Below the pieces are notes generated by a model. The model did not search any database. It saw nothing but the letters and a program-made list of their open reading frames with translations, and had not been told where the DNA came from. A program made the translations under genes and the position numbers. Below are positions 2,861-62,481 of a DNA stretch of 64,000 bases, in pieces (positions within the stretch are counted from its first letter, which is position 1; the number at the start of each line of letters is the position of its first letter). Origin of the DNA: Parcubacteria group bacterium (GTDB lineage Bacteria > Patescibacteriota > Minisyncoccia > SW-4-49-11); NCBI GenBank assembly GCA_943354045.1, contig CALRBF010000001.1, forward strand, positions 68,046-132,045, written 5' to 3'.

Positions 2861-2936
2861 TGGTCGGGAAGACAGGACTCGAACCTGCAGCCCCCTGGTC
2901 CCAAACCAGGTGCGCTAGCCATTGCGCCACTTCCCG
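2861..2936 (-). tRNA. tRNA-Pro with anticodon UGG
   Basis: The minus-strand read is CGGGAAGTGGCGCAATGGCTAGCGCACCTGGTTTGGGACCAGGGGGCTGCAGGTTCGAGTCCTGTCTTCCCGACCA. It has a 7-bp acceptor stem, an anticodon stem CCTGG/CCAGG with loop TTTGGGA (anticodon TGG, G37), a T-loop TTCGAGT and an encoded CCA. Confidence 0.85.
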
Positions 2937-3004
2937 TATATAACCATATTATTCTATCAATAATATGATATATAGTCAACTTAATCCGTATATATATTAT
3001 ATTT

Positions 3005-4396
3005 TTACTTTTTCTGAAGCCCAAGTCCTAATTCTAAAAGCTGATCGATTTGAATTGGGTTTGGAGATTGCATCATAGGATCTCTCCCATCTCCAGTTTT
3101 TGGAAAAGCAATAACTTCACGAATACTCGATTCATTTTGAAGTACTGTTAATAATCTATCTAACCCCCAAGCAATGCCTCCATGAGGTGGGGTTCCAGAA
3201 GCAAGAGCTGTCAACATATGCCCAAAAGCTTGATCAACTATTTCTCCTTTATAGCCTAAAATTTCTAATACTATTCTCAAGGCTTCTGGATTATGATTTC
3301 GAATACTTCCCCCTCCTATTTCGAATCCATTTAAGACAATATCATATTGCGTTGAGATAATATTCCCAATATCTTTTTTCTCTAATAATTGCTCTCTATA
3401 TTCAGGCTTTGGTGCTGAAAAAGGATTATGAGAAAATGTCCAATTTCCTTGCTCAGTTTTCTCGAATTGTGGAAAATCTATAATCCAACAAAATGCTAAT
3501 ATATTTGTGTCTTCTTTGTCCTCTCTAATATCTGGTCTATCATTACCATATTTTTCCATTGCCTCAGCATAGCTAATACGAGGAAAAGGTATAGTCTGAA
3601 TTTTCTTTTCTGGGTATAATTGTGTCACCAAATCAATCAAAAGCTTTTCATTTAAAGCAATAACATCTTCTGCTTCTACAAAACTAATCTCTAAATCTAA
3701 TTGAGTAAATTCAGGCTGTCTATCTTTACGAGTATCTTCATCTCGAAAACAACGGGCAATTTGAAAATACTTTTCTATACCACTTGCCATCAATAATTGC
3801 TTATATTGTTGTGGTGATTGAGGAAGAGCATAAAAACTTCCAGGCTGATGCCGAGATGGCACTACAAAATCTCGAGCACCTTCTGGAGTAGATTTGGTCA
3901 AGATAGGAGTTTCAATTTCAAGAAATCCCTCTTTATCAAGAAAATTACGAATAAATTGAGTCACTTTATGCCGATTAGCAAGATTTTTATACATTGATGA
4001 TCGGCGTAAGTCAAGATACCGATATTGTAATCTCAATTCCTCACTAATTTCATTTTTATCCTGATCTAGGGGAAATACAGGAGTAATAGCAGTATTCAAT
4101 ACTTCTATACTCAAAGCTTCAATTTCAACAGTACCCGTAGCCAAATCAGTATTAATAAGTCTTTCTGGACGAGCTTTTACTAGCCCACGAATACGAATCA
4201 CCCATTCTGGACGAATCTCTACAATCAGGGACTGTGAGGCCTCATCTAAACTTGCAGGGACCAATACCACTTGAACTTTTGCCGTGCGGTCTCTAAGGTC
4301 AATAAATGAAATTTTCCCATGATCTCTTTTGGTATCAATCCACCCCTCAATAGTAATTTCTTCTCCAATATGATTAATAGTATCTAGAATGCTCAT
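3005..4396 (-). CDS. aspS: Aspartate--tRNA ligase, short form lacking the bacterial GAD insertion (archaeal/eukaryal-type, possibly non-discriminating)
   Basis: Class II aaRS motifs are present: QSPQQYKQLLMASGIEKYFQIARCFRDEDTRKDRQPEFTQLDLE (the AspRS motif 2 signature FRDED..RQPEFTQ) and GLDRLL (motif 3). There is an N-terminal OB-fold. At 463 aa it is too short to carry the GAD domain of canonical bacterial AspRS. Confidence 0.8.
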   Translation of the reverse strand: MSILDTINHIGEEITIEGWIDTKRDHGKISFIDLRDRTAKVQVVLVPASLDEASQSLIVEIRPEWVIRIRGLVKARPERLINTDLATGTVEIEALSIEVLNTAITPVFPLDQDKNEISEELRLQYRYLDLRRSSMYKNLANRHKVTQFIRNFLDKEGFLEIETPILTKSTPEGARDFVVPSRHQPGSFYALPQSPQQYKQLLMASGIEKYFQIARCFRDEDTRKDRQPEFTQLDLEISFVEAEDVIALNEKLLIDLVTQLYPEKKIQTIPFPRISYAEAMEKYGNDRPDIREDKEDTNILAFCWIIDFPQFEKTEQGNWTFSHNPFSAPKPEYREQLLEKKDIGNIISTQYDIVLNGFEIGGGSIRNHNPEALRIVLEILGYKGEIVDQAFGHMLTALASGTPPHGGIAWGLDRLLTVLQNESSIREVIAFPKTGDGRDPMMQSPNPIQIDQLLELGLGLQKK

Positions 4397-6685: not shown

Positions 6686-7423
6686 ATGATTAAATCTCTA
6701 TTCACAAAGAAAAATATTATCATATCTAGTATTGTTCTTGTATTAGGTTTGGGAATAGCCTATATCCTATTAAAGCCCGATTCTAAACCTAAGCTCACGC
6801 CTATAGATGAAGGGCTTGCTCCCATTAGAATTATTCAGATCAAGGACGGCAAAGAACAAGAAGTTAATTTTACTGAGTCAGGAGCTGAAATTATTGCAAG
6901 TGCCCTTTTTTCTGCCAATCCTTTTGATGAACAAATTAAACAAGATATACAAGATCTTGGTATTAATCGTATAGATTTCCCCCCCCTCCCAGAAAATCAA
7001 ATAAAAGTTATCCCCAATCCAGAAAATCCACAAGCAGCAATTGAAAAATATTTAAAAGAGGTATATACTATATTCAAGGATAATACTATCCAGCTCAATA
7101 TCAATCAGCTCTCTGAAGAGGCTTTGGATGGAAAAACACAAAATATTCAATCCCTACTTCGCATTAATACTGATTTATATCGTTCATTATTCACAATAGA
7201 AGTACCCCAAGATGCATTAAAGCTTCATAAAGGATATATTCGAATCACCCAAATACAAAATAACTTTTTATTGGGACTATTAAATGCAAGCTCTGATCCA
7301 TTAAGACTTGATATCAATAGTAAAATCAGTCTATCTTTACTCCAAAAGATTGATATACCAATAAAAGAGGAACTACAAAGTATCAGAAAAAAATACAATA
7401 TCATATACCAAAAACAATCATAA
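6686..7423 (+). CDS. Hypothetical protein with an N-terminal transmembrane anchor
   Basis: 245-aa ORF with an N-terminal transmembrane helix. It is the first gene of a plus-strand block that ends at 12505. Confidence 0.35.
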   Translation: MIKSLFTKKNIIISSIVLVLGLGIAYILLKPDSKPKLTPIDEGLAPIRIIQIKDGKEQEVNFTESGAEIIASALFSANPFDEQIKQDIQDLGINRIDFPPLPENQIKVIPNPENPQAAIEKYLKEVYTIFKDNTIQLNINQLSEEALDGKTQNIQSLLRINTDLYRSLFTIEVPQDALKLHKGYIRITQIQNNFLLGLLNASSDPLRLDINSKISLSLLQKIDIPIKEELQSIRKKYNIIYQKQS

Positions 7424-44983: not shown

Positions 44984-46699
44984 CTATACCTCTATGGTTG
45001 TTAATAACTCAGGCAAAGAAAGATATCCTTGCAATACCTTGAATATTCCATCTTGTTTTAAGGTAATATAATTATTGGCTCGAAGATATTCAAAAACTTC
45101 TTTTTCATTGAATTTTTTTTCTACAATCGCCTGTAACTCTGGAGTCATGACTACTACTTCAAAAATAGACATTCTCCCCTTGAACCCATTACTACATTTA
45201 GGACATCCAACTGGAGTATATATTGAGTCATAGCCACCAGTATATATTTCCTGTATACAATCATTACTCAATGAAGCAATAGCTTCTTGAATATATTCTT
45301 TTTCTTTTCCTTCCAAAGGCACTTCTTTTTTACAATATTGACATAGTTTTCTTACTAATCGCTGAGCAATAACTATTTGAAGCGATGCAGAAAGTAAAAA
45401 TGGTTCAACTCCCATATCAATAAGACGAGGTAATGCTCCTGGAGCATCATTAGTATGCAATGTTGAGAATACAATATGTCCTGTCAAAGCTGACTGTACC
45501 GCTAGCCCCGCTGTTTCACCATCTCGGATTTCTCCTACCATAATAACATCTGGATCCTGCCTCAAAATTGATCTAAGTCCAGAAGCAAAAGTATAATTTA
45601 TTTCTGGCTTTACCTGAGACTGATTAACTCCAGATAAATAGTATTCTATTGGATCCTCTAATGTCACAATATTAATATCATCCGTATTAATTTGTGATAA
45701 CAGAGTATAAACTGTTGTTGATTTACCCGATCCCGTTGGTCCTGTTAATAGAATCATACCAAATGGTTTTTTGATTGCTTCTTGAATCAAGTCTACTCGA
45801 GGACCAATAAATCCTAATTGCTCTAATGATCTAACACCGCCCGAAGTATCTAAAATTCTCAATACTACCTTTTCTCCATATTGGGTAGGGAAAGTCGATA
45901 CACGAAAATCTACTTTTTTATCTTTATCTAAAATAGAAAATCTTCCATCCTGGGGCTTTCTTTGCTCATCAATTTTGAGATTTGATAAAATTTTAATACG
46001 AGCAACAATGGGAGAATAGGCTTCTTTTGGTAAAATCAAACTAGTATGTAATACTCCATCTACACGAAATCTTACCCGTACTGATTCATCAGTTCCTTCA
46101 ATATGTATATCTGATGCTCCCCCTTCTACGGCATTTTTAATAATAACAGATACAATTTTGATAATAGGAGCACTTTCTAAATTTTTTGTTGTAATACCTG
46201 TGGTATCTGGGAGTATTTGTTCTGCTTTATTTTTTTGATGAAATTCCTCAAGATTTTCTGTAACTGCATTTTTTAAATTCTCTGCCTTTTTAAGAGCCTT
46301 TTTAATATCTGATTCTATTGCAACAAATAACTCAAAGGATAATTTTTTTTCTTGAAAAATAAACTTAATAGCTTGTACAGCAGTATAATTTTGTGGGTCA
46401 GCAATAGCGATAGAAATAGTATTATTTTCTTGTGCAAAAGGAATTAAGGTATATCTTTTCATAATATTAATCGAAAAAATATCATACAATTCTTTTGGTA
46501 TACTAATATTCTCTAAATCTATAAATTCTAATCCCAAAATCTGAGCATTTACTGTTATTAATTCTTTTTCCGTAAAATTTTTCTCGAGAAAGGCTTTAAT
46601 TTCTGATTCTGGGATAGTATCAAAAGAAGATATAGCCTTAAACTTATCAGGGAACTCATTTTTTAATAGTTCAAATGTTTTTTTTAAATCTAACTGCAT
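44984..46699 (-). CDS. pilB: Type IV pilus assembly ATPase (GspE family)
   Basis: An N-terminal GSPII_E_N domain is present. The Walker A is ILLTGPTGSGKSTT, and a tetracysteine motif (CQYCKK...CPKC) is present. The start was set at MQLDL (ATG at 46699) so that it does not overlap the upstream small ORF. Confidence 0.9.
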   Translation of the reverse strand: MQLDLKKTFELLKNEFPDKFKAISSFDTIPESEIKAFLEKNFTEKELITVNAQILGLEFIDLENISIPKELYDIFSINIMKRYTLIPFAQENNTISIAIADPQNYTAVQAIKFIFQEKKLSFELFVAIESDIKKALKKAENLKNAVTENLEEFHQKNKAEQILPDTTGITTKNLESAPIIKIVSVIIKNAVEGGASDIHIEGTDESVRVRFRVDGVLHTSLILPKEAYSPIVARIKILSNLKIDEQRKPQDGRFSILDKDKKVDFRVSTFPTQYGEKVVLRILDTSGGVRSLEQLGFIGPRVDLIQEAIKKPFGMILLTGPTGSGKSTTVYTLLSQINTDDINIVTLEDPIEYYLSGVNQSQVKPEINYTFASGLRSILRQDPDVIMVGEIRDGETAGLAVQSALTGHIVFSTLHTNDAPGALPRLIDMGVEPFLLSASLQIVIAQRLVRKLCQYCKKEVPLEGKEKEYIQEAIASLSNDCIQEIYTGGYDSIYTPVGCPKCSNGFKGRMSIFEVVVMTPELQAIVEKKFNEKEVFEYLRANNYITLKQDGIFKVLQGYLSLPELLTTIEV

Positions 46700-46700
46700 A

Positions 46701-46883
46701 TTATAACTTAAAATAACTACTAATAGTATCAAAGCTAGGTGCTACTATATCGGTATCCCCAACAGATATATGATTTAATATAATAGCAAATATTTGATAT
46801 CCAAAATAGCCTACAGCTATAATACTAACTGATACTATAATGAATTTGTGATACCTTTCAATAATTTGAGATATATTTTTCAT
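46701..46883 (-). CDS. Small membrane protein within the pilus operon
   Basis: 60-aa ORF with one transmembrane helix (FIIVSVSIIAVGYFGYQIFAIIL). Confidence 0.3.
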   Translation of the reverse strand: MKNISQIIERYHKFIIVSVSIIAVGYFGYQIFAIILNHISVGDTDIVAPSFDTISSYFKL

Positions 46884-46885
46884 AT

Positions 46886-47416
46886 TTATTTATAATATGT
46901 TATTGCATTAATAGTTCCCTCTATATTATCTAGGCCTTTATCAAAAGATAAGCTAACGGTATTCACCCCTATATATCGCTTTGATTGTGTTAATTTCTGT
47001 AAAAAAGTATATATTTCTCTTTTACCTCCAGTTATTTTTAATGAAATATTCACTGGTCTTAATGTATTAATAGAAGTATTATTGGTATCTAAGTTATTAG
47101 TATCTTTTATTAGTGAACCTTGCTCATCTACAGAGATGGAAGCTATTTCAATATTAGATTCTCTTTCAAATTGTGTAAATTCTGTTGTAATCGCGGTCTT
47201 ATCCAGTGAATCTGGTGTGAATTCATTCATTCTTTTTGCCAATTCTGAGGGCGATTTTTGATCAGCAAATGATTGGGTAATTTGTGTTTTTTTCTGTAAT
47301 TCTTTTACTCCAGAAAATTTACTTGTCAAAAAATCAGTATAAAAATTAGTTATTGTCCAAATCAAAGCAATAAATATAATACAGAATGAAATGGATAAAA
47401 GGGTTTTTTGATTCAT
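46886..47416 (-). CDS. PilO-like pilus assembly protein
   Basis: A bitopic architecture (N-terminal transmembrane helix, coiled coil, C-terminal domain) together with its position between pilN-like and pilB genes. Confidence 0.5.
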   Translation of the reverse strand: MNQKTLLSISFCIIFIALIWTITNFYTDFLTSKFSGVKELQKKTQITQSFADQKSPSELAKRMNEFTPDSLDKTAITTEFTQFERESNIEIASISVDEQGSLIKDTNNLDTNNTSINTLRPVNISLKITGGKREIYTFLQKLTQSKRYIGVNTVSLSFDKGLDNIEGTINAITYYK

Positions 47417-47421
47417 ATCAT

Positions 47422-48003
47422 CTACTTTAACTTAATCAATATATCAAGATTAACTCCACTACCCTCAGAATTCTTCCTAATATCTGAGTAAGAAGCATCT
47501 ATAACACCTTTAACCTCCTTTATCTTAGATATTTGAGAATTAGCATCATCAAAAGAAAGCGCTTGTGCTGAAAGAATAATAGTCTTTTTTTGTCTATTAT
47601 ATACCCAAGAACTTGTTTTAAACCCAGTAGTATATGTTGCTTCAATTTCTTTCATAATTTCAACTGGATTATATGTTTGAGAAATCAATGTATTCACATT
47701 ATACACTGTTTTTTCTAAATCATCTTTTGGATAATATACACTATTTCTTACATTTAAATCTGATAAAATTTGATTATATTCATTCGTAGGCTTTATAATA
47801 TAAACCCAATAAACAGCACCTAATACTCCTATATATGTAATTAATGTCAATATAAATCCAATAATATACCCCCGATACGGATGTTCTTTTTGCGTCATTA
47901 CATATCCCTCTAAACCCTTTTGTCTATTAGGAATAAAGCTAATATTTTCCATATTATTCGACATAATCTTTAAGTGAAATACCAATTGACAATACCAAAT
48001 CAT
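47422..48003 (-). CDS. PilN-like pilus assembly protein
   Basis: A short cytoplasmic N-terminus, a transmembrane helix (YIIGFILTLITYIGVLGAVYWVYII) and a periplasmic domain. The true start is probably an internal ATG at 47952 or 47964, since the longest ORF overlaps pilM. Confidence 0.5.
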   Translation of the reverse strand: MIWYCQLVFHLKIMSNNMENISFIPNRQKGLEGYVMTQKEHPYRGYIIGFILTLITYIGVLGAVYWVYIIKPTNEYNQILSDLNVRNSVYYPKDDLEKTVYNVNTLISQTYNPVEIMKEIEATYTTGFKTSSWVYNRQKKTIILSAQALSFDDANSQISKIKEVKGVIDASYSDIRKNSEGSGVNLDILIKLK

Positions 48004-49024
48004 GCCAAATTGTATGCAGAACTTCCTTATCCTTCACCCCTTTAATAGTCAAATTAGAATAGGGTTCTGCAACAGTAATGGTAATTTTTTGACTTACTCC
48101 TAATTGATTATTAATAACTAAATCAACAAATTCGCGAATACCCTCCATTTTAGCAAATCCACCAAGTAATACAATATCTTGTATTTTTTCTTCATTATTA
48201 TCCTGAAACTGTCTTATAATAGGCAATACTTCATTCTCAAAAAAGCTTTTGATGCCCGATTGTATTAGGGCTGATATATCTGAGTTAGAGCCAGACATCC
48301 CATTATCTTTCTTTATTTTTTCTGCTTCTATACTGGATATATTATGAGAAGATGCAATTTTATCAGTAATATGATTCCCCCCAAAATCAAATGATTGTAT
48401 TAATTGTAATTGTTTGTCAGCACTTACAATACTTACTGTACTAGTTCTGGCACCAATATCTACAATACATACTTGAGTATTGGGTAAATCAATAGAACGA
48501 ATAATGGAGAAGGTATCTAATTCAAATCCTTTAATAGTAATACCCAGAGCTCTACTTACTTCAATATACGTATTTACCACACTATTAGGAATGGCAATAA
48601 GGAGTACATTTAATTTATCTTTTTCCTTATTGGGTCCCAAATTCATCCAATCTAATTGCACACTGCTTAAAGAAATAGGAATATGTTGTTTTGCCTCAAA
48701 CGGTACAGCTGTTGCTAATTCCTCATAGGAAAGAATTGGGAAAGGGACAACTGCTGAAAAAGCTAAATAGGATGGAATAGCAATATATGCCTCCTTTATT
48801 TCCATTTTAGCAGCATTAAGCATAGCTTGTATAATGGTAGTAATCTGAGATACAGAAATAGTATGCTCCCCGTTTTTCTCTTGAATAATATTATCTAAGT
48901 CATCATCCCAAATACTATAATTAATCACGGATATTTTACTTCCTCGCTTTTGAACTTCAGAAATTTTAATAGTTTGAGTACCAATATCAATACCAAACGA
49001 ATTTTTTGCTCCTAATCCTAACAT
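47954..49024 (-). CDS. pilM: Type IV pilus assembly ATPase-like protein PilM (actin/HSP70 fold)
   Basis: The N-terminus SFGIDIGTQTIKISEV is typical of PilM. The size and its pairing with pilN are also typical. Confidence 0.8.
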   Translation of the reverse strand: MLGLGAKNSFGIDIGTQTIKISEVQKRGSKISVINYSIWDDDLDNIIQEKNGEHTISVSQITTIIQAMLNAAKMEIKEAYIAIPSYLAFSAVVPFPILSYEELATAVPFEAKQHIPISLSSVQLDWMNLGPNKEKDKLNVLLIAIPNSVVNTYIEVSRALGITIKGFELDTFSIIRSIDLPNTQVCIVDIGARTSTVSIVSADKQLQLIQSFDFGGNHITDKIASSHNISSIEAEKIKKDNGMSGSNSDISALIQSGIKSFFENEVLPIIRQFQDNNEEKIQDIVLLGGFAKMEGIREFVDLVINNQLGVSQKITITVAEPYSNLTIKGVKDKEVLHTIWHDLVLSIGISLKDYVE

Positions 49025-51402: not shown

Positions 51403-51479
51403 GTACCTATAGCTCAGTTGGATAGAGCGCAGGTTTGCGGAACCTGAGGTCAGAGGTTCGAACCCTCTTAGGTACACCA
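51403..51479 (+). tRNA. tRNA-Arg with anticodon GCG by my reading of the anticodon loop
   Basis: The sequence is GTACCTATAGCTCAGTTGGATAGAGCGCAGGTTTGCGGAACCTGAGGTCAGAGGTTCGAACCCTCTTAGGTACACCA. The acceptor stem is 7 bp. The anticodon stem is CAGGT/ACCTG with loop TTGCGGA. The T-arm is AGAGG-TTCGAAC-CCTCT and CCA is encoded. Confidence 0.75.
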
Positions 51480-53617: not shown

Positions 53618-54904
53618 TTATTCTTTCCAATTCCAATCAGTATGAATATACTCGGATACTTGTTTTGATTTTGGTTTATAATCTAAATTAAATTCAAATC
53701 CTGCAATACCCGGCTGTTTTTGAATTTGTAAACTATATTGTTGAGGCTTGGGAATACTATAATCAATCACAATATTCTTAGTACTATTAAAGGGAATATA
53801 TATTTGAAATCCTCCAATCTTTTTATCATATTCACTACTATAATCAATTTTATCTTTGTCTATACCGGTAATATTTGTAATAAAGGCATTTTTTGGTAAA
53901 ATTACTCTTGTATACGACTTATAGTCATTATTGAGAGGAGAAGCAGTTTTTGCGGTATTATTATACTGTATAGTAATTTTAGAACATAATTTATCCCCAC
54001 AGCTATCAACTATTTTATTAATATTTCTCTTCATATAATAATCTGTCTTGAGAGCTCCTAAATTAGCGTCAACCAACATAAAATAATCACTATCTCCATT
54101 ATTCTCAATCATCCCATCCCAATTCAAAGACTCTACCCTATCTTGTACTTTTTGATCTGAACTCCATAGCAATAATTGTTTTTGATTAGCCTGTTCTATC
54201 AGTATATTTGCAAGGGTATATAATGTTTGAGGAGAAGATTTGCGAATTTTCTTTTCTACTTCAGCTGCTAAATTTTTAATAGGCTCTTTACGATCAGCAC
54301 GACTAATTCCCTTATCAATAAATCCAAAATTTAACTCATATTGTACTGCTAATAATACATTATCAGCATTTAATTCTCCATCTATGCCCTCAACATTAAC
54401 TGGGCCAATAATCTTTAATATCTCTGGTAAAATAGAAGCATTAAATCCAATAATTCCAGCTATATCTTGAGTCCCCCCCTCCAATTTGTATAAATCAATC
54501 ATTTGTTTTGCCGTAGTTGGAAAATCAGGTGACCAATTACCATCTCTCATTTGCAATGTATTTACCCCTAACATCGTTTTAATAGGCTGAGGCGCATTAA
54601 TACCAGGTTTTCCATAATCAAAAGCATTCGTATTATAAATAGTATACTTTTTCACTTTTCCTTTACTCAAAGTAACTTCTGCAAAATTACCTACAAATCC
54701 CCCCGTTGGTCTTAGCTCTAAAGTATTTTGGAATAATACTAAATAGGTGACATCTCCCTGCTTTTGTATAGCTTGAGCCAAACTAATCTCTTGTCTATAT
54801 TGAGCCCAAATAATGCCCCCAAGAATAAATCCTATACTGATTAGTATCAATACTATAATACCTAATATGGTAAAAATTCTCTTTTTGGGAGAAACTTTTT
54901 TCAT
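53618..54904 (-). CDS. Hypothetical N-terminally membrane-anchored extracytoplasmic protein
   Basis: 428-aa ORF with one N-terminal transmembrane helix. It lies next to polysaccharide genes. The domain is not confidently identifiable. Confidence 0.35.
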   Translation of the reverse strand: MKKVSPKKRIFTILGIIVLILISIGFILGGIIWAQYRQEISLAQAIQKQGDVTYLVLFQNTLELRPTGGFVGNFAEVTLSKGKVKKYTIYNTNAFDYGKPGINAPQPIKTMLGVNTLQMRDGNWSPDFPTTAKQMIDLYKLEGGTQDIAGIIGFNASILPEILKIIGPVNVEGIDGELNADNVLLAVQYELNFGFIDKGISRADRKEPIKNLAAEVEKKIRKSSPQTLYTLANILIEQANQKQLLLWSSDQKVQDRVESLNWDGMIENNGDSDYFMLVDANLGALKTDYYMKRNINKIVDSCGDKLCSKITIQYNNTAKTASPLNNDYKSYTRVILPKNAFITNITGIDKDKIDYSSEYDKKIGGFQIYIPFNSTKNIVIDYSIPKPQQYSLQIQKQPGIAGFEFNLDYKPKSKQVSEYIHTDWNWKE

Positions 54905-54907
54905 ATA

Positions 54908-56089
54908 TTAATATTTCAAAGCTTCCGTAACCTGAATACCCGCCCCACGATATATACGAGAATTTCTATGATATACATTCTCAAGTGCTTTTACAATATG
55001 ATTCCAAGAATAATAATAGCGTATTTCTTCTTGTAATATATCAGCCATTTCTAAAGCACCTCTATAATCTCCCAATACATTCTCTAATTGATGCTTGAGA
55101 GATGAGATACTATTAACTCGAGCAATATGCCCAAGATCCCCTACAATTTCAAGATTTTCTCGAATATCAGAGACAATTACAGGAACCCCATAACTACCCG
55201 CCTCCAAAAGAGAAATAGATAATCCTTCTGAAGATGATGGCAACACATAAACTGCCGCATTCGCAAATAATTGTTTTAATGTTCTCCCTAATTGATGTCC
55301 AGTAAATATAATATTCTTATCCCCTTTTGCTAATACATGAAGATACTTCTCATATTCTCTTGTATAAGAAGGTCCCCCTACAATAACTAATTTTTTCCCG
55401 TATTTGTGCGCCATTTGCTGATAAGCTTGTATCAAAATATGTGCATTTTTATGCTTTACTAATCTTGCAATAAATACAATATATTCTTGCTTCTTGAGAC
55501 CAAATTGAGCTATCTCTGAATCCGAACTGATATGATTAAATACCGTACCATTTGGTATATAAGTAGCCTTAATATCAAATTCCCGAGATATAAAATACCG
55601 TAAACTTTTAGAAACTGTCACTACTTCATCAGCAAAATGACATCCCATCCAAGCCCCTAATTTTAACATTGACTTAGCAAAAAGATTCCATTTTCCATGA
55701 TACCAATCAGCACTATGAAAAGTGAATACCACCTTGGTATATTTATATCCAAAAAGATATTTTATACCGAATCCAAGCCTTGCAAATGGAGTTAATAAAG
55801 CAGGTCCCACCGAATTAATATGAATTACATCCAAATTGGGAATAAAAAAGCTATTCCAGATAGAAGTAAATGTATGAGTAATAGCATCTAGACTTTTGGT
55901 TGCAATAGAGGGAGTTTCAATAACCTGAACTCCTTTATAAATACCCTCTGGAGCATAAGCTTTACGGGTATATACAATAATATGATGCCCCCGCCGAGCA
56001 AGTCTTACTGCAATATGGTCAACATAATTCTCTACCCCACCACCAGCTGAGGCAGGAATACCTTTTTGACCTATAAAAGCAATTTTCAT
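54908..56089 (-). CDS. Glycosyltransferase family 4
   Basis: The N-terminus is MKIAFIGQKGIPASAGGGVENYV. The C-terminal EX7E-type region is LPSSSEGLSISLLEAGSYGVPVIVSDIRENLEIVGD. Confidence 0.8.
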   Translation of the reverse strand: MKIAFIGQKGIPASAGGGVENYVDHIAVRLARRGHHIIVYTRKAYAPEGIYKGVQVIETPSIATKSLDAITHTFTSIWNSFFIPNLDVIHINSVGPALLTPFARLGFGIKYLFGYKYTKVVFTFHSADWYHGKWNLFAKSMLKLGAWMGCHFADEVVTVSKSLRYFISREFDIKATYIPNGTVFNHISSDSEIAQFGLKKQEYIVFIARLVKHKNAHILIQAYQQMAHKYGKKLVIVGGPSYTREYEKYLHVLAKGDKNIIFTGHQLGRTLKQLFANAAVYVLPSSSEGLSISLLEAGSYGVPVIVSDIRENLEIVGDLGHIARVNSISSLKHQLENVLGDYRGALEMADILQEEIRYYYSWNHIVKALENVYHRNSRIYRGAGIQVTEALKY

Positions 56090-56159
56090 AATAATATGAA
56101 TAGTAAGATAATCACTTTATATAATAGCATATTTCATCCTAAATGTCAAAAGTTTTCAA

Positions 56160-56201
56160 CAGGTGAAATAAAAGAAAAACTCACCCCAAGCTAGAGGTGA
56201 G
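56160..56201 (-). terminator. Intrinsic terminator at the left edge of the GC-rich island
   Basis: On the minus strand the sequence is CTCACC-tctagcttgg-GGTGAG followed by TTTTTCTTTTATTT. Confidence 0.5.
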
Positions 56202-56418
56202 TATATATGATTAAAGCAATATCTCCTACCAAAAATAGTCCTATCAATGCCCCCAAGAGTCTAACTAAGAAGCGGGCTTGTACTTCTTGATCAGCTCTAC
56301 TTAGTAGGATATTTTCATCAAGAGTATCATTCTTTATTTCCCGAGCTATTAACACAGCTACAAGGAAAAGAACGGGTTTGAGATTGCGTCGCATGAGTTC
56401 AAAGAGCGGGAATAACAT
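56191..56418 (-). CDS. Small membrane protein at the island edge
   Basis: 75-aa ORF with two hydrophobic segments. Its composition is intermediate between the island and the background. Confidence 0.3.
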   Translation of the reverse strand: MLFPLFELMRRNLKPVLFLVAVLIAREIKNDTLDENILLSRADQEVQARFLVRLLGALIGLFLVGDIALIIYTHL

Positions 56419-56548
56419 GTATTATACCCTATCTTCATGTAAAATGAAAATCCCCAGTTGCAAAGCAACCGGGGACATAGAGTAAAACCAGAAATGGTCA
56501 AGGCGACTGCTCCCCGTGAGGGGTTAGTTGCTATCATTTTAGGTTTTC

Positions 56549-57769
56549 TTAGAAACGGAGGCCAGCGCGAAGCGTGGCGGCAAGACCATCACCGGAGGTG
56601 CCCGAGTTGTACCCGAGAACACCTTCAGCATAGGCGTTCTTGCTGATGCCGACCTGGAGACCACCGCCCACTTGGACATTGTGGTAGCCATCGCCGACCT
56701 CTCCTCGGACCTCTCCGAAGGGACGCCACTGACCACTCTTGGTCAGATAATAACGGCCATAGCCATTGGCATAGGCTCCGGTATTGTTCACACCGACCTC
56801 AGCAAAAACTTCAGTCTGCTGAGTGCGAGACCAGAGACCAGTTTTAGCGTTGAACGCCAAGCCGGACTCGCCAGCCACCGTAGCAGCACCCTCACCCTCA
56901 ACAAAGACAGTAAATTGCTGATACTTGTTCTGAACGAGATCTCGCTCGAGTCGAGCCCTAACACCCAATTGGGTGATCGGCTTGGCCGGGTTTTTCCAGG
57001 TATAGACATAGGGATACTCCATACCCGGACGGCTCTTGCCCTCACCAGAATCGGTATGAGTCAACTGACGGCCGAAGCCGACAACAGACCACCGAGTACG
57101 GGCATCTTGGGAGCGTCCATGAATACCTGCCCAGAATTCCAGACGGGAATCCGTATAGGACCCCTTCCAGATTTCTTTCAGGTTATCACCTGTGAAGCTA
57201 CCCGACTGAGTGACATATTGCACACCACTCATGAAGCCCTTGGCGGTAACAAACTCAGCTTTCACATCGAAGGCCGTATCCCGCGGACGGGAACGGAATT
57301 CTGTATGAAGACGGAATGGGTTCCACTTCCCTTCTCCCTGTTGCGGAATGGAATCCCGAGGAGGGACCACAATTCCAGTATTGGGAGTGGTGGAAGCGGG
57401 AGCAACGGCAACTGGGGCAGCAACCTGAATTACCGGGATAACCGGCGGAGGGCCAGGCTGTTGCTGTGATGAAACACCATTACGCTCAGCTTCCAGACGC
57501 ATGCGAATAGCACGGATCTGAGCTGCTTCCTCTCGAGTCGAGAGACGCCGAACTGAAGCGGTGGCGAGAGTATTGGTGACGACCGTGGAGGTCGCCGATT
57601 GAGGAACTGTAGCGTTCAACTCCTCCGCCTTGACACCCATGGGGGCACCAAGGAGAGGAAGAGCAAAGGCCAACAGTCCCAAGATGGTACGCTTTTTCAC
57701 AGCGACCTCCTGGTAAAGAACCCCCTTACAGTAGCATAAAAACACCATTTTGTCAATAGTTAACAACAT
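56549..57769 (-). CDS. Putative outer-membrane beta-barrel protein with an N-terminal coiled-coil and Pro-rich linker (GC-rich island gene)
   Basis: The signal peptide is KKRTILGLLAFALPLLGAPMGVKA (the true start is probably downstream of the ORF-track ATG). A helical segment (EEAAQIRAIRMRLEAERN) and a PGPPPVIPVIQVAAPVAVAP linker follow. The C-terminal 280 aa show alternating-hydrophobic beta-strands and end in GLRF. A C-terminal Phe is the OMP beta-barrel signature. Confidence 0.5.
   Translation of the reverse strand: MLLTIDKMVFLCYCKGVLYQEVAVKKRTILGLLAFALPLLGAPMGVKAEELNATVPQSATSTVVTNTLATASVRRLSTREEAAQIRAIRMRLEAERNGVSSQQQPGPPPVIPVIQVAAPVAVAPASTTPNTGIVVPPRDSIPQQGEGKWNPFRLHTEFRSRPRDTAFDVKAEFVTAKGFMSGVQYVTQSGSFTGDNLKEIWKGSYTDSRLEFWAGIHGRSQDARTRWSVVGFGRQLTHTDSGEGKSRPGMEYPYVYTWKNPAKPITQLGVRARLERDLVQNKYQQFTVFVEGEGAATVAGESGLAFNAKTGLWSRTQQTEVFAEVGVNNTGAYANGYGRYYLTKSGQWRPFGEVRGEVGDGYHNVQVGGGLQVGISKNAYAEGVLGYNSGTSGDGLAATLRAGLRF
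57730..57760 (-). promoter_or_regulatory. Promoter-like conserved motif upstream of the OMP-like gene
   Basis: In the minus sense the sequence is TTGACAAAATGGTGTTTTTATGCTAC. A near-identical 26-mer lies upstream of the 58908..59717 gene, and a variant (TTGACAAAATTGATAAAATATGCTAG) lies upstream of 57842..58294. Confidence 0.45.
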
Positions 57770-57841
57770 CTCAAATAGTGTCGGAAGAGAATAAAAAAAG
57801 CCCCCACGAGATGTGGGGGTAATTGGTGTTCAGGACTGGCC

Positions 57842-58243
57842 TCAGGGGGCAATGACGGCGTAAGTGTCAGGACTGATCGGTACTGACGGACAGGAGCTTT
57901 GCTGGCACTTGCCGGCCATGATGGTTCCTGCCCAGCCCTGAGGGGGGGCGATACCAACACTGTACCAGGTTTTGCCGTCGGGGAAACGGAAGTTCCCAAA
58001 GGCTCCTGAAGGAGGGCTGGCAACCCGCCCATCGATGACGGTTGCCGTCATCCCCCAATGACGAGGACCAAAGAGAAGCAGGGTGCTCCCATTGGGTACT
58101 CCCGGGGGCACCGAAATGCTTGCCCCCACCTGCTGAGCCGTGCCGGAAGACCCGGAGGGCTGGCTCAGCGGCCTTGCCATGACGGAGGCCATGGGAAGGA
58201 GGATGATGCCGGCCAGGAGGGCCTTGAAAAGAGCTTTCATGGA
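57842..58243 (-). CDS. Secreted protein that is a paralog of the N-terminal domain of the 58908..59717 product
   Basis: The signal peptide is MKALFKALLAGIILLPMASVMA (start set at the internal ATG at 58243). Motifs PGVPNGSTLLLFG, FGNFRFPDGKTWY, PQGWAGTIMAGKC and DTYAVIAP are shared with the larger paralog. Confidence 0.45.
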   Translation of the reverse strand, partial: SMKALFKALLAGIILLPMASVMARPLSQPSGSSGTAQQVGASISVPPGVPNGSTLLLFGPRHWGMTATVIDGRVASPPSGAFGNFRFPDGKTWYSVGIAPPQGWAGTIMAGKCQQSSCPSVPISPDTYAVIAP

Positions 58244-58299
58244 TTTACCACGAAACGACTTAGGGACTCTAGCATATTTTATCAATTTTGTCAAGAGTA

Positions 58300-58345
58300 A
58301 ACAGCATAAAAAAATACCGGCAGCTATTGCTACCGGCTTGAGAAT
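58300..58345 (-). terminator. Intrinsic terminator downstream of the N/Q-rich protein gene
   Basis: In the minus sense the sequence is GCCGGTAGC-aata-GCTGCCGGT (9 bp including 2 G-U pairs) followed by ATTTTTTT. Confidence 0.45.
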
Positions 58346-58363
58346 ATAGTTTTTACCTAGTTC

Positions 58364-58819
58364 CTAGTTACACAATATCCTTACATGATTATTTTGATAT
58401 ACACATCCTCTATTATTCCAAGAAGGAGTATGTTGCAAGTGATAATTATTATTCCAACCTGGATTTTGCTGGTGCAAGGGATAGTTCTGTCTACCCCATC
58501 TTGAACGTGGACGACCCACATAATGAGTAGTATATCCAGTGGAGTTACGTTGCTCATAAAAATACTCACAGGGAAGTCTTGTAGCCTTACGGACCCAATC
58601 ACATGTATCCATATTGGGAATGAGATTATTAGTCAAAATCTGACCCTCATAGTCAACTGTATCCCCACCGCCCTGATTTTGCCAGTAATTATTTTGCTGA
58701 TAGTATCCTCCTCCAAATTGATGTTGAGCCTGAACAGTGGTCGGAATACTCAAAAACAAAGCTGTTGCCAAAGAAGAAATGAGCCTTTGCATGAGAGGTA
58801 AACCTCTAATGTTTGCCAC
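58364..58819 (-). CDS. Small secreted N/Q/Y/W/G-rich protein with 4 Cys
   Basis: The signal peptide is LISSLATALFLSIPTTVQA. The mature part is low-complexity (QHQFGGGYYQQNNYWQNQGGG...WNNNYHLQHTPSWNNRGC). The DNA is noticeably less GC-rich than the flanking island genes. Confidence 0.4.
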   Translation of the reverse strand: MANIRGLPLMQRLISSLATALFLSIPTTVQAQHQFGGGYYQQNNYWQNQGGGDTVDYEGQILTNNLIPNMDTCDWVRKATRLPCEYFYEQRNSTGYTTHYVGRPRSRWGRQNYPLHQQNPGWNNNYHLQHTPSWNNRGCVYQNNHVRILCN

Positions 58820-58907
58820 TTCACCATAACATATATTATTATAAATATCAAGTCAAAAGGAAAAACCGCCAGCACTAGGTGCTGGCGGCGAGTTTTTGGA
58901 ATGGGGG

Positions 58908-59717
58908 TCACTGCGCCTGATAGGCATAGGGTCCGACCGGAGCCGGAGCATTGCCATCAAGCTTGATGACAGAGCCACGAAGCCTTGCGGCTCCGACGGT
59001 GCTCCAAGCTTGGAGTTGACCTCCATTCGCCCGATAGGCAAATTGGAAGACCTGTCCCCGTTGGACTGGGAGGCACCAGGTATTACCACTCACCTTGGTG
59101 AGTGCAACGACTTGTGCCGATCCCCTGCCATTATCTACCACCCCGACGGGAGTGGTGGATGAGAGAAGCCTTCTTACATTGACGAGCCCCTTGGGACCGC
59201 CCGTGAGGAGGCCAACTCCTGGGCGACTGGACCCGGCCCCGGAGAAGGAGATGGAGTTCAACCTCGAGGGAAGTTGAAGGCAGGCTTGCCCGCCTTGCAC
59301 CAACACCGTAAAAGAGCTATTGACTCCATTTGTAGTAATCGGGGCTACCAGGGCGAAAGTATCTCGGTCAAGAAAGGCCTCCACGCCATCACAGGCGAGA
59401 GCGTCCCCTTTGCAATCACCTGCAATGATACGAGCTGCCCAACCCTTGGGAACTCCAGAGAGCTTTTCCACCTGAAACCAGCTTGTGTCTGGTAGAATAA
59501 AGTTACCAAATATCGAGGCGGCCCCGACATCACCAGGAATGGTTACTTTTCCACTCCGAACGGGGTAGACTTTCTCCCATCCTTGTCCAAAAAGGACAAG
59601 ACGGGAACCGTCAGGGACTCCCGAAGGTGCCGGGAGGGTATAAGACTTCCCTTGTGCCACCGCAGGAATGGCGGTGAAGATGAGGGCAAGCGCCCCCACA
59701 AATCTGAAAATGTTCAT
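58908..59717 (-). CDS. Secreted two-domain protein; its N-terminal domain is paralogous to the 57842..58243 product
   Basis: The signal peptide is MNIFRFVGALALIFTAIPAVAQG. Motifs PSGVPDGSRLVLFG, FGNFILPDTSWF, PKGWAARIIAGDC and DRDTFALVAP are shared with the smaller paralog. Confidence 0.45.
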   Translation of the reverse strand: MNIFRFVGALALIFTAIPAVAQGKSYTLPAPSGVPDGSRLVLFGQGWEKVYPVRSGKVTIPGDVGAASIFGNFILPDTSWFQVEKLSGVPKGWAARIIAGDCKGDALACDGVEAFLDRDTFALVAPITTNGVNSSFTVLVQGGQACLQLPSRLNSISFSGAGSSRPGVGLLTGGPKGLVNVRRLLSSTTPVGVVDNGRGSAQVVALTKVSGNTWCLPVQRGQVFQFAYRANGGQLQAWSTVGAARLRGSVIKLDGNAPAPVGPYAYQAQ

Positions 59718-59760
59718 TTCAATCTCTCATCGCTGAGGGGTGAAGGTTCAATGTGATGGT

Positions 59761-59790
59761 AGCATAAAACAGCCATTTTGTCAAAAATAT
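59761..59790 (-). promoter_or_regulatory. Second copy of the island promoter-like motif
   Basis: In the minus sense the sequence is TTGACAAAATGGCTGTTTTATGCTAC, located about 45 nt upstream of the ATG of the 58908..59717 gene. Confidence 0.45.
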
Positions 59791-59855
59791 ACACCAATAT
59801 AATTACTCTATAACCCTATCGTCAATATCCTAAAAATAAGCTATACTATACCTAT

Positions 59856-61118
59856 ATGAAACAATCTGTTGCTATCTTAATTACCAATTTTGAAGGAGGT
59901 GGAGCTCAAAAGATTGCTCTTACTCAAGCTCAACTTTTCCAAGATTTAGGATATAAGGTACATATTATTGCTCTTGAGCAACAAGAATCCTATACTATAC
60001 CCAATAATCTTTCTATTCATTTTCTCTCTCACAATAAGGGACAAGACTCTAAACTCAAAAAACTCTTTCAATTCCCTCTACTTCCCTTCAGACTTGCTCA
60101 ATATCTCAAAGAGAATAGTATATCTCTTTGTATTAGCCATCTTGAGCGAGCTGATTTTGTGAATATCTTAGCAAAACCTATTGCCCATCATAAAACCATA
60201 TCCATTATACATAGTCATCTTACTGCTAATTATACTAAAGAAGGTATATCATTTCGAAGTACGATATACTTGGGACTCGTCAAAATATTAGAACAATTTA
60301 ATAATCGTATTATTGGAGTATCGCGAGGTATTGCGGCTAATTTGATTCATGAATTACATTTACCTCAAGATAAAATTCAAGTCATACTAAATCCCTTTGA
60401 TATTATAGATATACGAGATAAAGCTCAAATCCCCCTCCAAAAATATCAGGATATTTTTGAGACTAATACCATTATTTCTATTGGACGTCTTTCTCGTCAA
60501 AAAGGATTATGGCATAGTATATTAGCCTTTCATACGGTATTACAAAATAATCCCAAACTTAAATATATTATATTAGGTGATGGTCCATTGAGAGATTATC
60601 ATATACAATTAGCACGCGAATTGGGGCTAAAAGTATATTCACTATGGGATAATCAGGAGTTCTCAACCGATTATGATATATATTTTCTTGGATTTCAGGA
60701 TAATCCCTTTCAATATATTGCCAAGGCAAAAGCACTTATATTACCATCACATTATGAGGGACTTCCTAATGTATTGGTAGAAAGTCTTATTATTGGAACT
60801 CCCGTCATCGCCTCTGATTCTGACTCAGGTCCTCGTGAATTATTAGCTCCAAATACTAATATTACCTATAAAACAAAAACTTTAGACCAAGCTGAATATG
60901 GCATTATTATCCCTCTTGATAACAATATATTGACTCAAGCCCCCTATAATCTTAGCCCTTCTGAACAATACCTCTCTGAGGCTATCAATCTCATAATAAA
61001 CAATACTGATTTACAAAAATCATATAGTGAGAGGGCGAATACTCGTATACAGGACTTTAATATCAATACTATTGCCCCTCAATGGGAAGATCTTTTGGAG
61101 ACTGTTTTGGCCGAATAG
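59856..61118 (+). CDS. Glycosyltransferase family 4
   Basis: The N-terminus is ILITNFEGGGAQKIAL. The C-terminal EX7E-type region is ILPSHYEGLPNVLVESLIIGTPVIASDSDSGPRELL. Confidence 0.8.
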   Translation: MKQSVAILITNFEGGGAQKIALTQAQLFQDLGYKVHIIALEQQESYTIPNNLSIHFLSHNKGQDSKLKKLFQFPLLPFRLAQYLKENSISLCISHLERADFVNILAKPIAHHKTISIIHSHLTANYTKEGISFRSTIYLGLVKILEQFNNRIIGVSRGIAANLIHELHLPQDKIQVILNPFDIIDIRDKAQIPLQKYQDIFETNTIISIGRLSRQKGLWHSILAFHTVLQNNPKLKYIILGDGPLRDYHIQLARELGLKVYSLWDNQEFSTDYDIYFLGFQDNPFQYIAKAKALILPSHYEGLPNVLVESLIIGTPVIASDSDSGPRELLAPNTNITYKTKTLDQAEYGIIIPLDNNILTQAPYNLSPSEQYLSEAINLIINNTDLQKSYSERANTRIQDFNINTIAPQWEDLLETVLAE

Positions 61119-62481
61119 TAGTATATTTTATCACCATTCCCAATAGTCCAAAAAATATCCACATCACTGCTGTTTGACGCAGTAAATTATCCCAAATACT
61201 GGATAAATATATAGCAAAAACTAAAAAAGTCATAATAAGTAGTAATGTATCTTTACGAGATTGTATACGAATAAGTAAACTATACACTATACCAATAATG
61301 AATAATACATAGGCTGCAAGTCCAATAATACCCATCTCAACAAAAATTTTAATATAATCATTATGAGCTTCAAGAGCTCCCAAAGATACCCCCCTTACCT
61401 CTTCTACAATAATTTCTATTGTTCCTGTACCAAATCCCGTCCATGGCCGAGATAATCCCTTATTATACATATCCGCCCACATGACTTGTCGCCATATAAT
61501 AGAATCACTAGGATCTCCATTAAATAGTCCCACTACTCGAGCAATCACTGGGATATCTTCTAATGGAGTTAAATTATACCAAATATTTTGTTCTACCCAA
61601 ATATATCCAGCCACTCCTATCACAATAATTGGGGTAATAATTGATCCTATAATAAGAGTTTTTTTGGTATAGCGAATTAAACTCACTCCAACTAATAGTA
61701 AAGCAAGTCCAATCCAAGCTCCTCGAGTATAGGTTGCAATTAATAATATTGCTAATAATATTCCATAGCCTACAAAAGCAACCTTATATAATGGTTTTTT
61801 TATACTATTTTCAAAAAACATATATACCATTAATGCAATAATAATCAGGAGAAAATACCCCAAAACATTAGGATGTCCAAATGTACCTGCGATACGATTT
61901 TCAAAACCAGGATTAGTATATAAACCTGCTCCATTAAATAATTGTATATACCCAACAATAGCAGGGATAATAGAGGAACTAATAAATAATGTAATAATAT
62001 ATAATAAATCCTTTTGAGATTGTATAATCACATATCCAGTAATATACATTAATAAGAATGAAAGTACTCTGACTAATTCATTAATAGAGGCTAATGGATA
62101 TATAGATATACTCGCAAATATAATATAAACTCCAAATAATCCCATAAATAATCCACTTAAAGGAATAGAAAATATTGACAATTGCGACCTATATATAATA
62201 AGTATACTAATAATAATCGATATAATTGCAACTAAACCAGCTATATTAATTGCCGGTAAATCAGTCGTTAACACAAAAGAATAAGTCCCAAATATATCAA
62301 GCGAGGGGCGAATAAATAATAATACCGATAATATTGATAATAATGAAACACTAAAAAGTGCTATTAATATACTGATACTTGCAAATATAATAAACGGAAT
62401 TATTCCATTATCAATGAATAATGCGATAATCCCTAATATAGCTCCAATGATAAGAATTAACCTAGAATTTCTCTGAGTCAT
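61069..62481 (-). CDS. O-antigen ligase/polymerase family (Wzy_C-like) polytopic membrane protein
   Basis: There are at least 10 transmembrane helices, with a large external loop containing WTGFGTGTIE...ALEAHNDYIKIFVEMGIIGL, typical of O-antigen ligase-domain proteins. Confidence 0.6.
   Translation of the reverse strand: MTQRNSRLILIIGAILGIIALFIDNGIIPFIIFASISILIALFSVSLLSILSVLLFIRPSLDIFGTYSFVLTTDLPAINIAGLVAIISIIISILIIYRSQLSIFSIPLSGLFMGLFGVYIIFASISIYPLASINELVRVLSFLLMYITGYVIIQSQKDLLYIITLFISSSIIPAIVGYIQLFNGAGLYTNPGFENRIAGTFGHPNVLGYFLLIIIALMVYMFFENSIKKPLYKVAFVGYGILLAILLIATYTRGAWIGLALLLVGVSLIRYTKKTLIIGSIITPIIVIGVAGYIWVEQNIWYNLTPLEDIPVIARVVGLFNGDPSDSIIWRQVMWADMYNKGLSRPWTGFGTGTIEIIVEEVRGVSLGALEAHNDYIKIFVEMGIIGLAAYVLFIIGIVYSLLIRIQSRKDTLLLIMTFLVFAIYLSSIWDNLLRQTAVMWIFFGLLGMVIKYTTIRPKQSPKDLPIEGQ

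Follow-up and report, generated by a model that had tools for sequence, protein, structure and literature searches.

Replacement flexible genomic islands ('glycotype' or O-chain islands), described by López-Pérez and Rodriguez-Valera in free-living aquatic bacteria (PMC4898812, PMC11898729), are swapped by homologous recombination via their conserved neighbours (PMC4898812). Patescibacteria (the candidate phyla radiation, CPR) exchange genes mainly among themselves (PMC12455944). Here we analyze a locus that appears to be best compared with such islands. It lies on contig CALRBF010000001.1 (assembly GCA_943354045.1) of a Parcubacteria group bacterium, within a 64,000-nucleotide stretch (positions 68,046 to 132,045 of the forward strand; hereafter the window, from whose first base all coordinates are counted), where about 3.6 kb of GC-rich DNA (56160-59795) separates two GT4 glycosyltransferase genes, GT4a and GT4b. 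The host is a freshwater member of the Paceibacteria, and its nearest species representative is a Lake Mendota 'Candidatus Paceibacteria' metagenome-assembled genome (MAG) with a 92% identical GT4b. The region is probably an ancestral array that keeps a fixed position within a Wzz/Wzy/GT4 glycan locus; its monocistronic genes would encode exported proteins of the envelope or surface, and its coding payloads would be swapped on a conserved scaffold while their GC content stays stationary.

A sliding-window calculation over the whole window gives a GC content of 0.519 at 56421-59800 versus 0.333 elsewhere, all other 1-kb bins being at or below 0.402. GC-normalised tetranucleotide usage likewise marks the island as the most deviant part of the window (correlation to background of 0.65-0.66, versus 0.73-0.93 elsewhere). 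The G+C fraction at third codon positions (GC3) ranges from 0.54 to 0.68 in three genes, namely i1, i3 and the gene of a predicted β-barrel protein (the barrel gene; Table 1), as opposed to 0.216±0.037, with a maximum of 0.33, in 58 background open reading frames (ORFs). The locus therefore displays the atypical base composition and codon usage by which horizontally acquired islands are recognized. The original prediction, made by eye from the sequence, was right about the abrupt switch and the accompanying shift in codon usage, but its figure of about twice the background GC was too high, as the computed ratio is ~1.6x. Its gene inventory (a 75-amino-acid (aa) membrane ORF, the barrel gene, the paralogs i1 and i3, and the N/Q-rich i2), the placement of all these genes on the minus strand, and the GT4 glycosyltransferases on both flanks, which have Pfam matches, are likewise confirmed. 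The GC-rich DNA forms two blocks (~56450-58250 and ~58870-59740), whose edges match ORF plus terminator to within ~30 nt, while i2 and the 75-aa ORF are AT-rich. Third-position C is 0.32 in the GC-rich genes versus 0.08 in the background, TTA, ATA and AGA are nearly missing from them, and long antisense ORFs are found in the GC-rich DNA. When the three GC-rich proteins are recoded with background codons their genes have a GC content of 0.44, compared with 0.57 observed and ~0.33 in the background, indicating that about half of the excess reflects amino-acid composition and about half synonymous choice.

To place the array phylogenetically we used a set of fetched loci and contigs (designated by L-numbers), with RecG, GT4b and DUF4012 as the flank genes compared. 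The slot in relatives has the order Wzz-Wzy-GT, array, GT4b-DUF4012-RecG, and contains 3-4 unnamed exported-protein genes with a GC content of 0.55-0.60 against backgrounds of 0.30-0.37; the flank genes of these relatives are only 50-81% identical and synonymously saturated (synonymous divergence, dS, 1.2-3). Such a syntenic GC-rich array is seen in L018-L022, L024-L027, L029, L030 and L108-L114, and is present in all relatives examined except L028. In every array locus that reaches the downstream flank it lies directly upstream of GT4b-DUF4012-RecG and downstream of Wzz/Wzy/GT. The slot of L028 holds the AT-rich i2 alone. In a tree of concatenated GT4b, DUF4012 and RecG (1513 columns), L028 falls within a clade with 100% bootstrap support whose other six members all possess GC-rich genes, and such genes are also present outside this clade, in the pair formed by the window and L024 and in the L022 branch. 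The nesting of L028 among array-bearers shows that the array predates the clade and that L028 has lost the GC-rich genes. Thus, on the evidence of gene order and phylogeny, we take the array to be ancestral at its fixed position in the clade.

The phyletic distribution of the payload families is similarly narrow. At 90% identity the barrel family falls into 43 unnamed clusters, and wherever the surroundings of a member could be read they proved to be this slot. An exhaustive hidden Markov model (HMM) search of 1.84 billion representative proteins recovered the barrel family in five clusters only, all in-clade, while a broadened profile of the i1 family recovered ~34 clusters, consisting of in-clade proteins only. 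A DNA-pattern scan of metagenomes with the barrel profile yielded just two loci, both in the slot. The readable genomic contexts, at least 14 of them distinct, all represent this slot in an AT-rich Paceibacteria background. Diderm bacteria gave no match to the barrel or i1, no phage or plasmid vector emerged from IMG/VR (searched with both family profiles) or from tblastn against PLSDB and INPHARED, and no donor lineage was found among ~15 billion proteins by word-indexed and exhaustive HMM searches. In GC-moderate relatives the homologs match the composition of their own genomes (GC3 of 0.37 for i1 in L033 and 0.36 for the barrel gene in L104), and in L105, which is very AT-rich, the barrel gene lies only mildly above its surroundings, with a GC3 of 0.29. 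The families are therefore indigenous to the wider lineage, and a high GC content is not an inherent property of them.

The AT-rich DNA between the payloads has a recurrent organization. As had been proposed, each island gene has its own promoter-like site and intrinsic terminator. The best-defined promoters belong to a single family, with TTGACA, a 17-nt spacer and an extended -10 element (consensus TTGACAAAAT…TATGCTAnnnT). Its strict form has four matches in the 64 kb versus 0.04 expected, one each before the three payload genes (i1, i3 and the barrel gene) and one before GT4b, a native and AT-rich gene. In ~230 kb of related loci the strict motif precedes GC-rich genes, GT4b and, in the single locus L110, i2, but nothing else, and this holds whichever payload is present; the GT4b promoter is kept in most relatives (e.g. 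L018, L021, L024-L028), including the array-less L028. The direct repeat at the island borders is also this promoter element, with copies at 59759-59796 and 56124-56161 and two more inside. The original prediction had overlooked this repeat, but its statement that the borders lack an integrase, a transposase and a tRNA stands: there is no integrase or transposase Pfam match within ~10 kb of the island, and the closest tRNA is at 51403-51479. Between-species nucleotide similarity inside the slot is limited to three AT-rich modules (76-94% identity; 58223-58343, 57617-57819 and 56384-56562). The first is 76-85% identical to its equivalents in L024, L108 and L109 despite unrelated flanking payloads, and the second is 78-92% identical to those of the same three loci. 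A scaffold module would accordingly comprise an intrinsic terminator, a near-consensus extended -10 promoter and a 5' untranslated region (UTR), forming an AT-rich segment between GC-rich coding payloads. Such modules might drive strong transcription in a co-ordinated way and also offer the homology by which payloads are replaced; their promoter type is common to the payload genes and the native GT4b, and i2 is an AT-rich resident of the array.

Comparison of individual genes reveals extensive replacement on this scaffold. The i1 protein is 93% identical (dS 0.38) to that of L018, whose RecG is 81% identical and whose flanks have a dS of 1.2-3, but only 33% identical to that of L022, which is just as distant. 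L024, the sister species (RecG 93% identical), has neither i1 nor i3; its barrel is 33% identical, and it carries other GC-rich exported-protein genes. The same-species locus L013, with flanks 99.5% identical, shows no difference across the i2 terminator, the i3 promoter and the 5'UTR; its sequence diverges ~10 nt before the i3 ATG and re-converges near the 3' end of the barrel gene. The i3 protein encoded in between is 46% identical, and the barrel is of the other type, with an alternative signal peptide. L013 and L024 on the one hand and L018 on the other thus provide the combination typical of replacement islands, namely divergent versions in close genomes and similar versions in distant ones. 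Many contigs break at the replacement boundaries, e.g. at 58252. We rejected an elevated density of single nucleotide polymorphisms (SNPs) as a description of this variation, as the dominant strain is SNP-poor in the island and the variation consists of segment replacement. The coincidence of the breakpoints and the residual similarity with the promoter/terminator modules points to homologous recombination. The payloads (barrel, i1 and i3) would be replaced wholesale, with breakpoints in the scaffold modules, so that close strains and species carry different or even unrelated payloads and distant species can share near-identical ones. This turnover might be driven by selection on phage- or host-facing surfaces, and the array probably serves to diversify the surfaces by which phages or hosts recognize the cell. 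What remains of the horizontal transfer originally proposed is therefore an exchange of payloads among related Paceibacteria at a fixed locus, and not an insertion event from a foreign donor. The glycan genes beside the array vary too: in the sister species L024 (1-8000) and in L109 (164-2625), a co-occurring contig from the same sampling project, Wzy shows no more than 42% identity and a glycosyltransferase of the Gtf3_C type takes the place of GT4a, indicating that the variable region reaches past the GC-rich genes.

If the GC-rich payloads were decaying to the host GC3 of 0.21, parsimony-polarised synonymous changes should show ~5 GC→AT per AT→GC. Four independent comparisons instead give ratios of 17:12, 22:23, 31:18 and 10:1. 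The pooled ratio of 80:54 is incompatible with decay (P=8e-11) and corresponds to an equilibrium GC3 of ~0.47 versus 0.21 for the genome. The payload GC3 is stationary, and is not the fading trace of a recent transfer. Our best guess is that the GC content is kept up by gene-specific selection on the coding sequence or the mRNA of the exported-protein genes, and exchange within a shared payload pool may add to its maintenance. As the coding strand is A-depleted we also considered mutagenesis of the diversity-generating retroelement type, for which no reverse transcriptase or template repeat was seen, though the idea was not followed by a dedicated search.

Two other explanations of a high and stationary GC3 need to be weighed. 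The payloads might come in again and again from a GC-rich source missing from the sampling, for instance GC-rich Paceibacteria or the bacterium on which the episymbiont lives, and would then never stay long enough to decay. The discordance between the histories of payloads and flanks would fit such a source, as would the tendency of Patescibacteria to swap genes among themselves (PMC12455944), the type IV pilus genes nearby, and the homologs of GC-moderate relatives, which carry host composition and show that the families track their background elsewhere. We nevertheless consider it unlikely, because all of the distinct contexts, at least 14, are slots in AT-rich Paceibacteria, no homolog occurs in any GC-rich background, phage or plasmid searched, and the known GC-moderate relatives have a GC3 of 0.36-0.37, below the 0.54-0.69 of the payloads. 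Alternatively, the array could be as described above with its GC content arising from GC-biased gene conversion at a recombination hotspot. The locus recombines often, its GC3 is both stationary and high, and even i2 and the 75-aa ORF are slightly raised (0.33-0.34 versus 0.21). Biased conversion is difficult to reconcile with the sharp GC3 steps between adjacent genes (0.54, 0.33, 0.68) and with edges that follow ORF plus terminator, while Wzy and GT4a, which are equally swapped, are AT-rich. Moreover, we know of no effects of this size from bacteria, and regard this explanation as distinctly unlikely.

The reading favored in the original prediction, a foreign insertion, which in its explicit form holds that a 3.6-kb island came recently from a GC-rich diderm and was inserted between the two GT4 genes, is very improbable. 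The composition and codon usage are indeed atypical, an outer-membrane-type barrel with a C-terminal Phe looks 'Gram-negative', and the close relative L028 is without the GC-rich genes. However, the same array, with the same composition and in the same slot, is found in all but one relative examined, across species with a flank dS >1, and the nested L028 represents a loss; a result of this kind had been named in the original prediction itself as speaking for an ancestral segment and against an acquisition. The barrel family, with its five representative clusters, and the i1 family are equally confined to the slot, and the donor lineage that protein searches were expected to reveal is not among the ~15 billion proteins. 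Mobility genes and a tRNA are missing from the borders, the synonymous flux is near balance, and the promoters are shared with the native GT4b.

A chimeric assembly joining AT-rich CPR DNA to the GC-rich DNA of another organism, which the original prediction had kept in play, can for practical purposes be discarded. Abrupt GC switches and the several contigs that end inside the island would suit it, but both junctions are spanned at 99.5-99.8% identity in at least five independent sample assemblies of one project, the exact GT4b and the exact i1 proteins are encoded on many contigs from different samples, and contigs and MAGs of unrelated studies (JGI, NCBI and ENA) have the same junction types and architecture; in addition, AT-rich promoters of the host type alternate with the GC-rich ORFs and the contig breaks fall at allele-replacement breakpoints. 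There is also next to no chance that the GC-rich DNA specifies a structured non-coding RNA, or some other element that makes no protein, with artefactual ORFs, even though a GC-rich island in an AT-rich genome often turns out to be an RNA gene and long antisense ORFs are present, since Rfam returned no RNA on the island at either the gathering threshold or E≤0.1, the homologs have 33-93% protein identity, the fold prediction is confident, and the signal peptides of the products together with dN/dS values of 0.13-0.63 indicate that the island ORFs are real genes.

The barrel protein is predicted to comprise a signal peptide, a helix (55-74), a Pro-rich linker and a C-terminal, ~14-strand β-barrel ending in GLRF. 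The structure model shows a closed antiparallel β-barrel fold which, with the N-terminal signal peptide, is as expected of an outer-membrane barrel. An amphipathic-strand test gives a face difference of 3.05 versus 1.24±0.25 in shuffles (maximum 2.37 in 2000), and the C-terminus reads …G[FL]RF, with F as the final residue in nearly all 34 aligned members, in the manner of an aromatic β-signal. Scans of all island proteins against Pfam, NCBIfam and PHROGs detected no significant family, and the barrel in particular matches no curated outer membrane protein (OMP) family in these collections. The barrel is confidently predicted to be of the outer-membrane type and would probably work like an outer-membrane channel. 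It differs from the known β-barrels of diderm outer membranes (OmpG, FadL/TodX, KdgM and autotransporter barrels) in its lack of Pfam or NCBIfam OMP membership and in its restriction to one CPR clade of a lineage regarded as monoderm. The tethered porins OmpM/SlpA of diderm Terrabacteria (PMC10628300) have the same domain order, with a signal peptide, a helix-bearing N-terminal region, a linker and a C-terminal porin-like barrel. OmpM-type proteins are defined by an SLH domain, a trimeric coiled-coil stalk and a 16-strand barrel, whereas the barrel protein has no SLH match in Pfam, a single 20-residue helix and a Pro-rich linker in place of the long coiled-coil, and ~14 strands. It may perhaps act, by analogy, as a tethered channel like OmpM. 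The barrel family is itself mosaic, with two unrelated signal-peptide/linker types joined to similar barrels (alignment A1 columns 1-200; P0040-P0043; L024 6359-7522), and one N-terminal type, near-identical to the first ~100 residues of the protein in the window, coupled to a barrel that differs greatly (33-40% identity). The pattern suggests that recombination also occurs inside the barrel gene.

The i1 and i3 proteins are paralogs (37% identity over 109 residues, E 4e-15) and are modelled as exported β-sandwich proteins. In the GC-moderate relative L033 the i1 homolog (2895-3764) begins with a signal resembling the twin-arginine type (MKRRTFLQIAGLG…), whereas i1 of the window has a Sec-type signal. 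The i2 protein is small and exported; four of its cysteines are conserved, and its centre is variable and rich in N, Q, Y and G.

Table 1. Features of the array and its flanks (window coordinates)
Feature	Coordinates	Strand	Remarks
GT4a glycosyltransferase	59856..61118	+	Pfam Glycos_transf_1 and Glyco_transf_4; GC3 0.23; upstream flank, conserved or variable
i1 promoter	59756..59784	-	TTGACA, 17-nt spacer, extended -10 (TGcTACCAT); kept in relatives
i1, 269-aa predicted exported two-domain β protein	58908..59717	-	GC-rich payload; GC3 0.54
i1 intrinsic terminator	58865..58889	-	11-bp stem with 8 GC pairs, then T-run
i2 promoter-like sites	58823..58856	-	weaker consensus fit, 9/12 positions match
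i2, exported protein of 142 aa, N/Q/Y/G-rich, four conserved Cys	58364..58792	-	AT-rich; GC3 0.33
AT-rich conserved module	58223..58343	-	probable recombination breakpoint; i2 terminator (58316-58337), i3 promoter (58266-58294), 5'UTR
i3, 132-aa exported paralog of i1 N-terminal domain	57842..58240	-	GC-rich payload; GC3 0.68
Conserved module	57617..57819	-	i3 terminator (57801-57819), barrel promoter (57728-57756), barrel signal-peptide region
Barrel gene start	57698-57711	-	ribosome-binding site AGGAGG (57706-57711), GTG start (57698-57700); inside module 57617..57819
Barrel gene, 383-aa exported protein	56549..57700	-	GC-rich payload; GC3 0.54
Barrel-gene intrinsic terminator	56450..56476	-	within conserved 3' module 56384-56562
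75-aa small membrane ORF	56191..56418	-	AT-rich; GC3 0.34; promoter-like site 56421-56450, terminator 56179-56202
GT4b promoter	56121..56149	-	same strict motif family as payload promoters
GT4b glycosyltransferase	54908..56089	-	Pfam; conserved downstream flank; 76-92% identical across clade
DUF4012 gene	53618-54904		follows GT4b

Pfam matches to Wzz, Wzy_C and the two GT4 genes identify the surroundings as a Wzy-dependent surface-glycan locus (Table 1). The Wzy gene (61069-62481, minus strand) and the GT4a gene converge, and their 3' ends share 50 nt (61069-61118), as they do in relatives. The 75-aa ORF is species-specific, without a homolog in the other loci compared; in L111 a 63-aa ORF (2509-2700) occupies its position between the barrel gene and GT4b. 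In the same-species L011 (11708-12879) GT4b is broken into separate ORFs of 230 and 168 aa, maybe through a frameshift, as a pseudogene or by an assembly error, and the RecG of this strain has 706 aa instead of 708. The closest tRNA is a tRNA-Arg(GCG) (51403-51479) directly upstream of recG; L032, a distant relative, also has a tRNA-Arg with this anticodon (7240-7316), which lies downstream of its GT4b. A few kilobases away, on the minus strand at 44984-49024, are type IV pilus/competence-type genes, read from the Pfam annotation of identical contigs: a PilM/FtsA-like gene (~47954-49024), three small ORFs and a T2SSE/PilB ATPase gene (~44984-46699), then a response regulator.

A comparable pattern recurs in distant loci of Moraniibacteriota, Falkowbacteria, Buchananbacteria and other CPR, which were fetched solely for their GT4b homolog (at most 46% identical). 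ORFs with outlying GC3 lie upstream of this homolog in 13 loci and downstream in 2 (p=0.002), and none of them is a tRNA. Close and distant fetched loci taken together, and with a crude heuristic, 27/38 GC3-outlier ORFs appear to encode a signal peptide, compared with 24% of the remaining ORFs (p=4e-9). The GC-rich proteins of the distant loci are of several kinds, being Ig-like, LysM-containing or of no recognised type. Outliers that lie upstream of the GT4b homolog and in its orientation include L036 1746-3988, L045 7339-7836, L048 473-3638, L051 2525-3118, L053 104-1180, L058 187-1697, L066 2150-4038, L071 683-3191 and L101 24-1627; most carry a signal peptide or lipobox, and the product of L101 24-1019 ends in a β-signal-like …VLARF. 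A deep homology of the Moraniibacteriota-type first GC-rich gene to the barrel was rejected, with an hhalign probability of 28% over a short helix only. GC-elevated exported-protein genes beside the GT4b module may be a general feature of the CPR, of which our search of the literature found no description.

Several observations count against parts of the picture of a swapped surface-protein array with a stationary GC content. Taken alone, i3 shows an excess of GC→AT changes (the 10:1 comparison, a small sample), and parsimony polarisation is biased with saturated outgroups, as the AT-rich control genes show. Ordinary translational selection fails as a cause of the high GC3, since L31, L25 and RF-1 have a GC3 of 0.14-0.16, deviating in the opposite direction. 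The homologs in other backgrounds (i1 in L033, the barrel gene in L104 and L105) do not have an elevated GC3, which implies that there is no universal target GC3 for the families and weakens the case for gene-specific selection. The survey of distant CPR relies on crude signal-peptide heuristics and on MAGs that are not phylogenetically independent. CPR are treated as monoderm (10.1101/2021.05.31.446380), with which a transmembrane β-barrel sits oddly. The structure model of i1 is of moderate confidence (predicted local distance difference test score, pLDDT, 68). Finally, the surface location of the products is drawn from signal peptides, predicted folds and the glycan-locus context, all of which are consistent with it.

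A compositional island can apparently be both ancestral and maintained, and deviation in GC content and codon usage, the usual criterion for horizontal gene transfer (e.g. in island predictors applied to Patescibacteria MAGs), would misclassify this array. Two GC3 equilibria (~0.5 and ~0.2) appear to lie a few dozen bases apart in one small genome, which bears on the question of selection versus biased conversion at synonymous sites, and the GC3-outlier pattern recurs beside the same glycosyltransferase in other CPR classes. The locus points to exported proteins that are probably highly expressed and rapidly swapped, making them candidates for the surface that phages and hosts meet, and a predicted outer-membrane-type barrel in a lineage thought to have no outer membrane makes the question of envelope and host contact testable. 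A bolder proposition, which we think doubtful, is that CPR keep a class of exported-protein genes at a private GC3 equilibrium (0.5-0.7 versus ~0.2) through some gene-specific force, with a porin that a single-membraned episymbiont of this clade would place in an outer layer of its own that has escaped recognition, or in the outer membrane of its host as a tethered pore for feeding or attachment, and with a scaffold purpose-built for swapping such proteins that face hosts or phages.

Among the systems described so far, classical acquired genomic islands share with the array an atypical GC content and codon usage and sharp boundaries. Unlike them, it has no integrase, transposase, tRNA target or att repeats, the border repeats being promoter copies only, and it shows clade-wide instead of sporadic synteny, no donor and no compositional decay. 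Integron cassette arrays resemble it in their co-oriented, small, swappable genes without known function, often with exported products, at a fixed site. An integron reading was rejected, as no IntI is encoded nearby, the hairpins are terminators with a GC-rich stem and a T-run and not attC sites, and every gene has a promoter. By analogy the array best fits a replacement-type flexible island for exposed cell-surface structures: both occupy a fixed site between conserved genes and have atypical composition, and in both unrelated versions occur in close relatives and near-identical ones in divergent backgrounds; the array would probably also resemble these islands in encoding exposed envelope structures and in being exchanged by homologous recombination. 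Replacement islands, however, swap whole clusters for glycan synthesis, whereas here single protein genes appear to be exchanged, and the array stands apart in having a conserved internal promoter/terminator scaffold that would provide the crossover sites, a GC3 that deviates upwards from the genome by ~0.35 and is stationary, and a predicted outer-membrane-type barrel in a CPR host.

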